Origin: Eledone cirrhosa
Taxonomy: Eukaryota
Direction: 5' to 3'
DNA length: 64,000 nucleotides
NCBI GenBank assembly: GCA_964016885.1
Contig: OZ024743.1
Coordinates: 344,162,001-344,226,000 of the forward strand
The translations under genes were made by a program, and so were the position numbers. The notes beneath the pieces were generated by a model that saw only the letters and a program-made list of their open reading frames with translations, was not told where the DNA came from and did no database searches. Position 1 is the first letter of the stretch. Each line of letters starts with the position of its first letter. Positions 8,110 through 33,090 of the stretch are shown in pieces.

Positions 8110-11100
8110 ATGGATGTGTTAAGAGTAGGATGTTTGAATGCACGTGGCCTGGGCTCAACTTGGAAGCAAGCAAAGCTTCTAAATGACCTCAGGTCATGTA
8201 GTATAAACGTAATGGTTATCTGTGAGACTCGAATCAGCGTCGTGCGGCAGCTGGCCCCCACCTTCGATGACTTTGAGGTGCATGCATCTCTCTGTCAAGC
8301 TGGAGGTGGGGGTGGCGTTGTCGTACTGCTGCAAAAACACTTGGGTCTTGCCGTACAGGTTGTGCACTCGGACCCGGAGGGTCGTTTGTTGGTGCTAGAC
8401 GTTGGCAGTAGTGAAAGTGCGGCCTTGAGACTGGTCGCCGTCTACTCCCCTTTCGGAGCTGAACGGCCCGACTTCTTCCAGCGTTTGGAGACTTTTCTGG
8501 GAACGTCGCGTTCCCTACTTCTAGCGGGGGATTGGAATGACATCCTAGATGCACGTTGGGACTATGCAGGAGCATGTCCTAATAGAGGGGGGTGTAACAG
8601 CCTCAAGGGGTTACTCGACCGTTTTAACTTGGTCGATAGATATCGACTAGATTTTCCAACTGTGCCTACCTGGACTTGGAGAAACCACAGTGGTCAATCT
8701 AGATCGTACTTAGATAGATTCTTAGTTAGAAGTAAGGATAGGGACATATTAAGCTGTCCAGAAATGCGCACGGTTGGCTACACGGATCACAAATTAGTGA
8801 CCTGCGTGGTCAATCTCGAGAAAACACATAGACAGGGTCCCGGTTACTGGAAACTTAATTTGTCTTTACCGGCAAAAGAGACTTACAGAAACCGGATTAG
8901 CAGATTAGTTAAGGAGAGGTTGACGGGTGCAATCGTCAACAACCGATGGTGGGCATCTCTCAAAAGAGAGATTAGAACAGAATCAATAAGTTATAGCAAG
9001 ATGTTAGCTGCCGATAGGAATAGAAACGAGAAAGAATTAACAGATAAATTAGAAGAGGCAATCAAGAGCGAAGATGTGGCCAGAGTGCTGGCATCGAGGA
9101 CGGCCTTGAACCAGTTTTTCGATGCAAAGCACGAAGGCTGCGTCATTCGAAGTAAAATACGTGCTCTAGGTAATGAGGGGGCCAAAGCCGTTGGATGGGC
9201 CCGCGTGACAGAAGCTAAGAGTGGAAATCGATCCACCATCCGGTCGTTGCAAGACGAAGATGGACGGGTGATCCGGGAGTCTAAGCAGATGTGCGAGGCC
9301 TTTCAAAGGCACTTTGCCCGATTGTTCGGGGGAGGGGAGGGTCCGGGCGGGGGCGTGGATTTCGGTACATACCTCGACGGCCTGCCGCGTCTCTCGAGTG
9401 AAGAGGCAGAGTCCTGCGAGGGACCAATCTCGGCTGATGAGATCGGAGATGCGCTGAGCCAATGCAGCAGACGCAAATCTCCAGGTCTCGATGGTATACC
9501 TTACAAACTTTATTTAGCAATGCCGGTCTTCTTCTCCGAACTCCTCGAAGCGGTCTACTGCAATTGGCAGCAGAACGGGAGAATTCCTTGTTCTGTAGCC
9601 AAGGGCGTAGTCACGCTGGTGAGGAAGGACAAGAACAAGGGGGATAGTATAAATCATTTTCGGCCCATAACCCTGCTAAACACAGAGTTAAAGATTTTGG
9701 CCAAGGTGTTAGCAAAGAGGTTGGCGCTTGTCGTGGGTGGCCTGGTGGGAGATGCGCAGACATGTGCTATCCCATCCAGGTCCATTCACGATAACCTCCA
9801 CCTCATGCGATACATCATAGAGAGGGTTGGCAACAAACCCGGCTTCGGTGGGGCCCTGATCAACTTGGATCAGTCTAAGGCCTTCGATAGGGTCGACCAT
9901 GGTTACCTGGATGCGGTGCTAGCGGCGGCTGGGTTCGTTCCTGTTTTCAGAGGCTGGATAACTGCCTTACATAGCAACCACATCTGTTCTAGGATCAAGG
10001 TGAACGGCTACCTTTCGAAGCCGTTCGAAATCACACGATCCATTCGACAGGGGTGCCCTCTCTCCTCCCTTCTGTACGTATTGACTCTCGAGCCTTTACT
10101 GAGGAAGTTGGAGTTGTTGCAGGGTATCCCCCTGGAACCAGGATTGAGCAAAGCGGTGTCGGCCTACGCCGATGACGTAACAGTAATGGTATCGACCGAC
10201 TCGGAGATCGAGGCGATCGGTACCTTACTGGAGGAGTACGAAAGGTTGTCAGGAGCGAAACTGAACCGGGAAAAATCCATCGGGCTGCAACTCGGAACGT
10301 GGAGAGGCAGACCGATGCCTCCTGACGGTGTCGTCGGACACTGGACGGAGGGCCCGGTAAAGTTGCTTGGGGTCTGGTTTGGACCGGACCTCCAGGTGGA
10401 AAAGAACTGGAACGAGGTTACGAACAAGGTGTTTGCACTAACCCAGAAATGGGCCAAGTGTAAGCTGTCCCTAAAAGGCCGGGCGGAGGTGGCGAACATT
10501 TACATAGCGTCCGTCACTTACTACCGCCTGACTGTCGTGCCTTGCCCTAAGGAAACACTCACCACCATGGAACGCATGCTCTTCCAATTTCTTTGGAAGA
10601 AGCGCCCTCCTATGGTGAGAAGATCCATCTGCTGCCAACAACCTTCGAAAGGAGGGCTGGGGATGCCGTGGTTGATGATGCGTAGGCACGCATTAAGGCT
10701 ACGGCACCTACAGGTATTCCTCACTGGTCAACCGGTGTGGGCTCCGTTCGTGAAACGAGCCTTTCCGAGACTCGTCTCGCTCACCGAGCTACAGTCCTGG
10801 GTCAAGCAAAGATCCGGAAAACTGGGAGACTGGCACACTGAGTGTGCTCAGGCACTCAGGGCTCTCTGGCAAGCGGGCCGGGCCATCGGTGGAGAATCCA
10901 CCTCATCATTCTATAGAGGGCTGGTGGCTAGCAGGGGCGATGACACCCTTGGAGAGTCGCTGGACATGGAAGAAGACGAACTGGCCAGCCTGTTCGGTAG
11001 GACTTTCGGCCCAGGACCAATGGACAACTTCCAGAAGTCACTGGCCTGGCAGTGCTACCGGGGGGCTCTACCCGTTCGAGAGAGGCTCTACAGACACGGG

Positions 11101-11547
11101 CGCCCTGGCAGGGATCCCTCAAAAAAGATTTGCCCTAGATGCGTGCGTCACGAAGAAACCGTTGCGCACGCATTGGTGCAATGTCCGGGCGTGGCTGATC
11201 TGTGGGGCTACGCCGAACGACTGCTGTCGCGGGTGGCGCCGATTAAATTGACCGCCGAGTCCGTGATGACAATCAAACCGCCTCCCCTCTTCACAAAGGA
11301 AGCAAAGGCGGTTTTTCTGTGCGTAATAGCCATGTTGAAAGAGGTTGTTTGGTGGACACGATTGAAAGGTCTGAGGTCAGGCAACTTCCTCTCTGGCCAT
11401 AGTCTGGTCTACTTCTTCCGATATCACTTCGGAAGAAGGATAAGAATGGAGAGAGAGGTGCTTGGCCACAGGCAGTTTTATGAAAGGTGGGTGATAGTGG
11501 CGAGAATGGCTCGTGTAAATGGGCCTTCTCTGTATACCATCCTGTAG
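8110..11547 (+). CDS. Tx1-A ORF2: APE endonuclease + reverse transcriptase + C-terminal zinc-binding domain (1145 aa, uninterrupted)
   Basis: APE motifs LNARGL, ETR, VYSP, GDWN, YLDR, TDH, GPGYWKLN; RT motifs SPGLDG, FRPITLLN, KAFDRV, RQGCPLS, YADD, KLLGV; CPRC..ETVAHALVQC. Confidence 0.96.
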   Translation: MDVLRVGCLNARGLGSTWKQAKLLNDLRSCSINVMVICETRISVVRQLAPTFDDFEVHASLCQAGGGGGVVVLLQKHLGLAVQVVHSDPEGRLLVLDVGSSESAALRLVAVYSPFGAERPDFFQRLETFLGTSRSLLLAGDWNDILDARWDYAGACPNRGGCNSLKGLLDRFNLVDRYRLDFPTVPTWTWRNHSGQSRSYLDRFLVRSKDRDILSCPEMRTVGYTDHKLVTCVVNLEKTHRQGPGYWKLNLSLPAKETYRNRISRLVKERLTGAIVNNRWWASLKREIRTESISYSKMLAADRNRNEKELTDKLEEAIKSEDVARVLASRTALNQFFDAKHEGCVIRSKIRALGNEGAKAVGWARVTEAKSGNRSTIRSLQDEDGRVIRESKQMCEAFQRHFARLFGGGEGPGGGVDFGTYLDGLPRLSSEEAESCEGPISADEIGDALSQCSRRKSPGLDGIPYKLYLAMPVFFSELLEAVYCNWQQNGRIPCSVAKGVVTLVRKDKNKGDSINHFRPITLLNTELKILAKVLAKRLALVVGGLVGDAQTCAIPSRSIHDNLHLMRYIIERVGNKPGFGGALINLDQSKAFDRVDHGYLDAVLAAAGFVPVFRGWITALHSNHICSRIKVNGYLSKPFEITRSIRQGCPLSSLLYVLTLEPLLRKLELLQGIPLEPGLSKAVSAYADDVTVMVSTDSEIEAIGTLLEEYERLSGAKLNREKSIGLQLGTWRGRPMPPDGVVGHWTEGPVKLLGVWFGPDLQVEKNWNEVTNKVFALTQKWAKCKLSLKGRAEVANIYIASVTYYRLTVVPCPKETLTTMERMLFQFLWKKRPPMVRRSICCQQPSKGGLGMPWLMMRRHALRLRHLQVFLTGQPVWAPFVKRAFPRLVSLTELQSWVKQRSGKLGDWHTECAQALRALWQAGRAIGGESTSSFYRGLVASRGDDTLGESLDMEEDELASLFGRTFGPGPMDNFQKSLAWQCYRGALPVRERLYRHGRPGRDPSKKICPRCVRHEETVAHALVQCPGVADLWGYAERLLSRVAPIKLTAESVMTIKPPPLFTKEAKAVFLCVIAMLKEVVWWTRLKGLRSGNFLSGHSLVYFFRYHFGRRIRMEREVLGHRQFYERWVIVARMARVNGPSLYTIL

Positions 11548-11801
11548 GTAAAGAAGTAAAGGAGAGGGGAGCACCTTCTCCGTGTGCTCCCCGGGCAAAG
11601 GATTGCACACTTTTTCGGGGGTGTGTGCAACCCCCATCACGTCCCCTCCCTTTTGAGGTTATTTTCGATTGTTTTCATGTTACACCCTTTTTACTCGATT
11701 ATATGTAAACTCCCCCTTTGTATTTGTCCCTTCTTTTTATGCCTTTATGGTAAATAAAAAAATCTATCTATCTATCTATCTATCTATCTATCTATCTTAA
11801 G

Positions 11802-32300: not shown

Positions 32301-32745
32301 TCTGGCGGGCATGTCCGATATGCGCGCAGGGCGACGAAACCATCCTGCACGCACTCGTCCAGTGTCCGAGCATTGCTGACTTGTGGGTTTATGTCGAACA
32401 CCTGCTGTCGCGTGTGGGACGGATCCAGCTATCAGCTGAGTCCATCGTGAGGATTACCCCGCCCTCTTCCTTTAGCAGGCAGTTTTTATCTGTCTGGAAG
32501 GGCAGGCAGTTTTTATCTGTCTGGTGGCCATGGCGAAAGAGATAGTATGGTGGACACGTTTGAAAGGGCTGAAGACGAGCACTTACCTCTTCGGTGATGC
32601 CCTGATTAACTTTTTCAAATTTCATTTGAAAAGGAAAATCAGGGTAGAAAGGGAAGTGCTCTCTTCCCAGCATTTTGTTGAAAGATTGGTGAGAGAAGCA
32701 AGAATGGCCCGAGTGAATGGGCCTACTCTGAGCATATATCTGTAA
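29316..32745 (+). pseudogene. Tx1-B ORF2 (APE-RT-Zn), disrupted
   Basis: INARGL, GDWN, TDH, YADD, CPIC..H...C; premature TAG at 30153-30155, small deletion frameshift near 30769, short internal duplication near 32477-32525. Confidence 0.92.
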
Positions 32746-33090
32746 ATTAAAGGTGGAAAACTGGGAGAGGGCACTTGCCTTGGTGGTCAGGGTCACTGTG
32801 GCCTTTTACTGGGCTTTCTCCACAAATGTCCCTCCGAAGTCTCCCCCCTATTGGGGAATTTTTCATTGTTATTTTTTTGTTACCTACTCTGTTTTTGTTT
32901 TTTACACACAGAAATGCCCATTTGTACCGTACTGTATTGTCCTGCACTATCCTTAATGTCTACTTTATGTAAACCCTTGTGGTTAATAAAGAAATCATTA
33001 TTATTATTATTATTATTATATTATAAGAACAGTTAAAGTTTAAGCAAAGAATCGCTGCTTTCACCCTTATATATATATATATATATATAT

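Follow-up and report, generated by a model that had tools for sequence, protein, structure and literature searches.

Four repeat targets in one L1/Tx1-type retrotransposon lineage of Eledone cirrhosa: target follows family, and the endonuclease hairpin is not a general switch

Introduction

Tx1 families that insert into microsatellites and Tx1 families that insert into DNA transposons are both already known, as described in PMC4494074 and PMC3812793. The teleost Tx1 families Kibi and Koshi and the crocodilian Tx1-1_Crp group are there reported as related families residing in (TC)n, (TTC)n, and (TTCC)n/(TTTC)n (PMC4494074, PMC3812793), and Tx1L of Xenopus laevis and the crocodilian Tx1-Mar and Tx1-9_AMi insert into non-autonomous DNA transposons, with Tx1D being classed as a non-autonomous family of the piggyBac type (PMC4494074). 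Here we analyze a window of 64,000 nucleotides from Eledone cirrhosa (assembly GCA_964016885.1, contig OZ024743.1, positions 344,162,001 to 344,226,000 of the forward strand), together with the 3.0-Gb genome in which its elements were searched. The window carries two full-length copies of an L1/Tx1-type retrotransposon lineage, A1 (window positions 5946..11761, + strand), a young copy of an ATCT-targeting subfamily, and B2 (27151..32996, + strand), a broken copy of the ATT-targeting subfamily Ba. Unlike Kibi and Koshi, with which we compare it by description, this lineage has (ATCT)n, (ATT)n, (GTCT)n, and a 72-bp tandem unit as targets in a single genome, with at least 11,813 copies and intact young second open reading frames (ORF2s).

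How non-LTR elements (LTR, long terminal repeat) with an apurinic/apyrimidinic endonuclease (APE) acquire and change site specificity has been stated to be an open question (PMC1950540, PMC3812793), and this limits their use as insertion tools. SART1 and TRAS1, with R1Bm, offer a parallel: these are sister APE elements of the R1 clade with different repeat targets, in which whole-domain endonuclease swaps retarget insertion and the annealing of RNA to target aids priming (PMC7265360, PMC1919474). They differ from the lineage described here in belonging to another clade and in having telomeric or ribosomal DNA targets, and SART1 has a poly(A) tail. Four target classes within one lineage, two of them reached by recent switches at 84 to 88% ORF2 identity, make the question directly testable. 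In this lineage the endonuclease hairpin is ruled out as a general switch, and the question narrows to 11 endonuclease residues specific to one family (D) and 3 specific to another (G), plus the RNA ends. In the literature searched we found no account of these targets in cephalopods, nor of a radiation onto four targets whose young copies are still intact; Repbase and Kojima and Fujiwara 2004 lay outside that search and may hold some. The portion of an O. vulgaris annotation consulted here records 80 L1-Tx1 families, 13 of them recently active, and lists no targets (PMC13282606).

Results and Discussion

Target tracks family genome-wide

An earlier note on this window, made from its sequence alone, had placed A copies in (ATCT)n and B copies in (ATT)n, and this division holds throughout the genome. 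There are at least 1,595 A1-type 3' ends, and of the first 100 listed, 84 run from GAAA-NN into TATCT and none into ATTATT. Ba-type ends number at least 9,451; here, 93 of the first 100 listed run into ATTATT and none into TATCT. The 16 A1-type ends that lie off TATCT are often in (TA)n or (TC)n. In the whole genome a single A1-type end continues ATTATT, and 52 Ba-type ends continue TATCTAT, many of which may be ends of the ATCT subfamily A3 carrying one substitution. The 5' ends behave in the same way: at the 30 best loci per end, B ends follow ATTATT at all 30 and A ends follow (ATCT)n at 29. Two further families have targets of their own. G prefers (GTCT)n (TGTCT at 75 and TATCT at 11 of the first 100 listed of 273 ends), and at 30/30 loci D occupies the same base of a 72-bp tandem unit, its ends genome-wide continuing ACT in 332 cases and TAT in one. 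Target preference in Tx1 has been defined as more than 20% of flanks being of one type (PMC4494074), a proportion that A1, Ba, G, and D all exceed by the counts just given.

The same picture emerges when copies are picked by their protein. A degenerate pattern for the hairpin finds at least 11,813 endonuclease-bearing copies in the genome, and we sampled the first 100 matches on contig C1 plus the two window copies, 82 of these 102 having a 3' end where its distance from the hairpin would place it. The ATCT subfamilies (n = 44) lay in ATCT in 31 cases, in TA-, TC-, ACCT-, or GTCT-related repeats in 6, elsewhere in 7, and never in a clean ATT array; B (n = 19) lay in ATT in 15 cases, in imperfect or other sequence in 4, and never in ATCT. 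G and D contributed 3 and 16 copies.

Such associations might arise if there were no targeting at all, the repeats being tails made by the elements or places where copies passively survived, with D spread as a composite carried by its host transposon. In keeping with that idea, the elements do bring along leaders and a few letters of tail (see below), and they stack up in tandem within each other's flanks. Unique flanking sequence speaks otherwise. Clean duplications of 12 to 19 nt occur at L048 (17 nt), L164 (19), C1:17805724 (17), L016 (15), L339 (16), and L365 (15), and an informative duplication (9 to 23 nt) is present in 13 of 35 young truncated copies, beginning directly after GAAA-NN in 8 of the 13. 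Because these unique flanks are exactly duplicated, TC|TATCT or ATT|ATT must have been present beforehand, and the targeting is real, sites as small as TC|TATCT being enough. The composite spread of D is taken up in the next section.

D inserts repeatedly into an old piggyBac-like MITE

Elements of the piggyBac type are flanked by TTAA and start with CCCT. The 72-bp array lies inside a TTAA-flanked miniature inverted-repeat transposable element (MITE) whose termini read TTAA-CCCTTTAGCATTTA ... TAAATGCTAAAGGG-TTAA, with inverted repeats beginning CCCT; it lacks coding capacity and is present in high copy, its left end being found in exact form at least 7,918 times. Judged by these sequence features, the host of D qualifies as a piggyBac-type MITE, which recalls the insertion of Tx1L into a DNA transposon. 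The D hairpin is of L1 length, however, whereas that of Tx1L is longer (PMC1950540), and the targeting of transposons by D and by Tx1L is likely to be convergent.

D copies differ from one another by 1.7% and the ends of their host MITEs by 15%, and the two divergences are uncorrelated (Mantel r -0.17, p 0.78; 16 of 30 loci having both). A truncated D at L305 has a 5' junction of its own. We therefore reject the view that the MITE spread D as part of a composite, and the divergences indicate that D inserted many times into old MITEs. Set beside the duplicated unique flanks, these observations leave an absence of targeting highly improbable, and we regard that reading as largely refuted.

On C1, D ends are confined to the stretches below 31 Mb and beyond 431 Mb. 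Of the first 100 host MITEs listed, however, 83 are situated at 30 to 60 Mb. D ends on C2 and C3 are likewise clustered distally. At L030 (C1:105124495) an A1 copy sits in the 72-bp unit of D at a different base, possibly a picture of how D started. Head-to-tail arrays of full-length D or A1, with one or a few target units between copies, were seen at C1:4.22-4.26 Mb, C10:40.7-41.4 Mb, and C1:348.92 Mb; either serial insertion or unequal crossing-over could have produced them.

Two recent switches nested among ATCT families

The ORF2s of A1 and B2 are colinear with long identical blocks (up to 26 amino acids; 731/1090 residues identical, 67%), as the earlier note had observed, and the two elements share 69% of nucleotides over 3.4 kb. 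Identity is 75% in the reverse transcriptase (RT), 61% in the endonuclease, and 31% in ORF1 (local alignment), and the alignment of the 3' untranslated regions has many gaps, so that the greater divergence of ORF1 and the 3' end was also correctly read. What does not survive is the description of A and B as closely related. In a FastTree phylogeny that included outgroups, the root of the lineage divides into A and B as sister clades (support values 85 and 94), each containing one Argonauta protein, one of the two on a long branch. No split of the lineage is deeper than A/B on this tree.

D and G are closer to ATCT families, at 84 to 88% ORF2 identity for D versus A18/A3 and for G versus A2. 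An ATCT clade without G was rejected (approximately unbiased [AU] test, p 0.0006), and one without D was rejected more weakly (AU p 0.03; Shimodaira-Hasegawa p 0.16), both in IQ-TREE with 14 rows and 2,000 replicates, which is below the advised number. By these tests D and G are nested among the ATCT families and are younger switches than A/B. The origin of D is visible because it arose recently inside a microsatellite-targeting clade, with 87% ORF2 identity to its ATCT sister. Intact copies exist for each of the four target classes. The suggestion that A and B form a natural target-switch pair was therefore right about the existence of a switch system, but A/B is a poor pair for swaps, for which D versus A18/A3 and G versus A2 are better suited.

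What looked like a further switch took the ATCT subfamily A8 into a 59-bp satellite, but we did not accept it as a family, there being only 4 copies within 1 Mb. A8 junctions in this satellite number 4 in the genome, and at L371, L372, and L374 (C1:35.25 and 36.18 Mb) A8 lies at one satellite site with a 13-nt duplication and without a TATCT tail.

The hairpin loop does not map one-to-one onto target

The segment in which the earlier note saw A and B differ, and which it described as a DNA-contacting beta-hairpin loop, is the betaB6-betaB5 hairpin of L1, both by predicted fold (A1 endonuclease pLDDT [predicted local distance difference test score] 94; first structural match the L1 endonuclease, template modeling [TM] score 0.79) and by profile alignment, and the two loop peptides are as it quoted them. 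The L1 endonuclease uses two loops to read the shape of DNA, and in the L1-DNA structure Pro197 and Asn118 touch bases, Pro197 in the minor groove (PMC8565326). In A1 the hairpin spans T189-S199 (8674..8706, + strand), with S194 (8689-8691) aligned to Pro197, and residues 112-122 (YSPFGAERPDF; 8443..8475, + strand) place F115 opposite Asn118. The B2 hairpin, TWTNRIGSSRS (29880..29912, + strand), has at 29895-29897 an isoleucine that is the sole B-specific residue of the loop.

Loops of ATCT families comprise RNHSGQ, ANRSGS, ANRSGQ, SNRSGT, TNRSGT, VNRSGT, ANRSGT, and TNHSGQ. The A1 loop is an outlier among them, and T191, R193, and S196, which would pass for B type in a comparison of A1 and B2, all occur in ATCT families. 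To present the four A/B loop differences as the switch was thus misleading: only I194 (S194I) is B specific, out of 35 B-specific residues in the endonuclease and 115 in ORF2, and the loops of D and G are unchanged. T115 was rejected as a B marker, since A8 has it. The D loop is TNRSGT in 14/16 copies, all 14 of which are on the 72-bp site. Outside D the same loop is found in 86 copies; the expected 3' window was fetched for 20 of them and contained an end in 15, continuity being inferred from distance, and these ends lie at TATCT in 14 cases, in (TA)n in 1, and on the 72-bp site in 0. For G, a TNHSGQ-type loop is seen in three older copies that are flanked by GTCT, and the same loop type occurs in an A1-lineage copy in ATCT. 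Young G copies carry N193, which we rejected as the cause of the GTCT preference: older G copies have GTCT flanks without it, and N193 therefore arose after the switch. In sum, TNRSGT and TNHSGQ each go to two targets and many loops go to ATCT, so that of the earlier proposal to map target on both family and loop, the family half stands and the one-to-one loop half does not. Because the loops of D and G are identical to those of ATCT families, the loop alone is not the switch, and as a general switch the hairpin is, on these sequences, already refuted by D and G.

For B only, the loop might still have set specificity, although we think this improbable. I194 is near-fixed in B and aligned to the minor-groove contact Pro197 (PMC8565326), young G copies have changed this loop as well (N193), and hairpin residues affect cleavage by R1Bm and TRAS1 (PMC1919474). 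However, at least eight loops all go to ATCT, TNRSGT goes to two targets, and the GTCT preference of G predates N193. I194 is moreover confounded with 114 other B-specific ORF2 residues, 34 of them in the endonuclease, and a B-clade protein from another source, known from protein alone, has S at 194. Grafting of the Tx1L loop did not transfer specificity, and pairing of RNA with target was proposed as an additional filter (PMC1950540).

Elsewhere in the endonuclease, D has 11 specific residues, of which W116, A118, E121, and Y122 fall within positions 112-122; W116, E121, and Y122 replace G116, D121, and F122, which are otherwise invariant even in B. G has three (E104, S120, and H235). A different part of the machinery could bring the complex to the repeat, be it ORF1, the RT, the C-terminal domain, or a tether to chromatin or to a host protein. 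D and G have 28 and 18 specific residues, respectively, outside the endonuclease, ORF1 is the most divergent gene, and D ends on C1 are distal in contrast to the listed host MITEs. Such a tether would not by itself yield one fixed base in the 72-bp unit, the domain-swap precedent favors the endonuclease (PMC7265360), and the distal bias of D could mirror the location of long arrays; we give this explanation little credence.

Target-like sequence at the ends of the elements

In every subfamily the 3' end reads AATAAA-GAAA-NN and is followed directly by target (TATCT, ATTATT, TGTCT, or ACTCTATAT) without poly(A), and truncated copies duplicate 12 to 19 nt of target, usually beginning right after NN. 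Some off-target copies carry family-type letters that are missing from the 5' copy of the target, namely, L041 (ATTA) and L349 and L340 (TATC), and B ends often retain a first ATT ahead of (CTT)n and (ACT)n. The idea, raised in the earlier note, that tail-target pairing determines specificity receives indirect support from the letters at L041, L340, and L349 and from the duplications that start after GAAA-NN.

The 5' ends carry leaders. In D, 296/310 of them are preceded by exactly CACATAACATCT, the CT variant of which is rare in arrays (12 listed units of 178 matches). This leader joins the 72-bp-unit sequence CACATAAC to ATCTCG, which is also found at the 5' end of the sister subfamily A11. 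A8 and A2 copies at separate loci likewise have common, imperfect leaders of 21 to 23 nt. These target-like leaders are inherited, and the 5' flanks of full-length copies are therefore partly element derived; more than 10,000 microsatellite-placed copies with repeat-like leaders are likely to shape the repeat landscape of the genome.

The leaders raise the possibility that targets change by flank capture. The protein would have only a loose preference for TC|TAT-like sites, and a founder landing in a new repeat would be transcribed with its new flanks, which would then guide pairing with no change in protein. The composition of the D leader, part 72-bp unit and part A11-like ATCTCG, is what such a history would leave; an ancestral-type TC|TATAT lies in the 72-bp unit four bases from the D junction, the D and G loops are unchanged, and D 5' ends are about as numerous as its 3' ends (310 versus 328 to 332). 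Yet A1 often enters (TA)n or (TC)n, and no family has become fixed there among the 102 sampled copies; A8 has not spread in the 59-bp satellite beyond 4 copies, all within 1 Mb; and D has substitutions at three residues close to a DNA-contact loop that do not otherwise vary. We therefore consider flank capture unlikely; if true, it would mean that an APE-type LINE (long interspersed element) is partly RNA programmable in nature.

A proposed joint role for endonuclease surfaces and RNA ends

On present evidence we lean toward an explanation in which the hairpin alone does not choose the target; several surfaces of the ORF2 endonuclease would do so together with short, target-like RNA ends that pair with the nick, in agreement with the published work on Tx1L and SART1/TRAS1 (PMC1950540, PMC7265360, PMC1919474). 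The endonuclease would supply a short preference by shape readout, nicking the bottom strand at the GAAA-NN junction or no more than a few bases away; RNA read through into the flanking repeat would anneal to the primer and so filter nicks; and the 5' leader would anneal to complete integration. In D, the changes at G116, D121, and F122, beside the second DNA-contact loop, may help the enzyme reach the 72-bp site.

Several observations weigh against this explanation. The nick position is read from junctions, and the actual nick may be a few bases to the right. Uniformity of the five bases that follow D junctions does not significantly exceed that in other units (0/30 versus about 8%), and 22/35 young truncated copies have no informative duplication, their flanks being pure repeat or showing none. 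The tail is not obligatory, because some off-target copies have none (L051, GAAATC-TTTCTT; L433, GAAATC-ATCATC; L371, GAAATC-AATATT). A further 28 D-specific residues lie outside the endonuclease, and residues 115-120 vary freely among ATCT families. Because the window of residues 116-122 was noticed only after the alignment had been seen and neighboring positions vary so freely, we treat it as no more than a lead.

Class of the elements

ORF2 matches PF03372, PF00078, and PF13966, the last just below the cut-off in A1 and above it in B2. It matches human LINE-1 ORF2p over its full length by profile, with R2 far more distant. A separate ORF1 lies upstream and had no match in the Pfam scan; a CX2CX4HX4C motif can be read from its sequence, and Tx1 ORF1 proteins carry such a knuckle. 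The marks of target-primed insertion are all present (5' truncation, a fixed 3' end, and target-site duplication). By domains, ORF1, and insertion marks, the family is an L1/Tx1-type APE non-LTR retrotransposon. The narrower Tx1 label, which comes from the earlier note, fits this architecture and is used here as a putative assignment. Human LINE-1 is also the closest solved fold and has a similar duplication length, but the genomic copies described here differ from it in lacking poly(A), in being repeat specific, and in having invariant 5' leaders. The matches returned included no named Tx1 sequence; among named proteins, those of Argonauta hians come closest. Contigs from three runs and three organisms span the A1 3' region but end at the repeat.

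Element copies and neighboring sequences in the window

A1 begins at a (TATC)24 array (5850..5945, + strand) and ends in AATAAA-AAAA-TC, followed by repeat without poly(A). Its ORF1 frame, with the knuckle, lies at 6301..8076 (+ strand) and has a run of 12 A near 6367 where 11/15 other copies have 11 A, and its intact ORF2 (8110..11547, + strand; 1145 amino acids) encodes the APE endonuclease, RT, and zf-RVT. An (ATCT)9 array (11762..11797, + strand) separates it from a 5'-truncated copy of subfamily A3 (11799..13170, + strand; 77% like A1), both flanks of which end ...ATCT-TAAG, with a duplication of up to about 19 nt. A 62-bp A-type 3' stub (3169..3230, + strand) lies inside (ATCT)n at 3085-3317.

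B2 is bordered by (TAT)15 (27105..27150, + strand) and by (ATT)n of about 9 units (32997..33024, + strand), and its ORF2 (29316-32744) is broken by a stop at 30153 plus frameshifts. The earlier note placed two B copies in (ATT)n, which is true of B2 on both sides; the other (22959..23425, + strand) is a 467-bp 3' fragment of subfamily Bb, 79% like B2 and without endonuclease, that has (ATT)n on its 3' side only, its 5' end adjoining half of a palindromic element.

An old, degraded relative, C (44332..45701, + strand), ends in GAAATAATAATAATAAT; its closest copies are only 68 to 80% alike, and its flanks are AAT/ATT rich. The endonuclease loop of this family was not recovered from the 12 loci fetched. 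C, including copies at L122-L150, may be informative about the ancestral target.

At 33091-33220 there is a 130-bp element, a near-perfect palindrome with AT-rich flanks and probably a MITE, and halves of it occur at 22886-22947, 33014-33069, and 38689-38796, one of them abutting the 5' end of the copy at 22959. At 20372-21012 a 237-bp unit is repeated 2.7 times; similar sequence lies beside many insertions and looks like an abundant short interspersed element. Dong, of the R4 clade, targets TAA microsatellites (PMC3812793), and a Dong-like element lies between the B copies of the window. This second non-LTR element is present in three pieces (23455-24861, 24879-24967, and 25118-27104, minus strand) and includes an RT. 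It differs from B in the opposite orientation of its repeat, ending in (AAT)n, the microsatellite of B read the other way, and in having what we take to be a restriction-like endonuclease, a C-terminal motif of PD..D type that is presumably R4/Dong-like. It is interleaved with B here and at many other loci.

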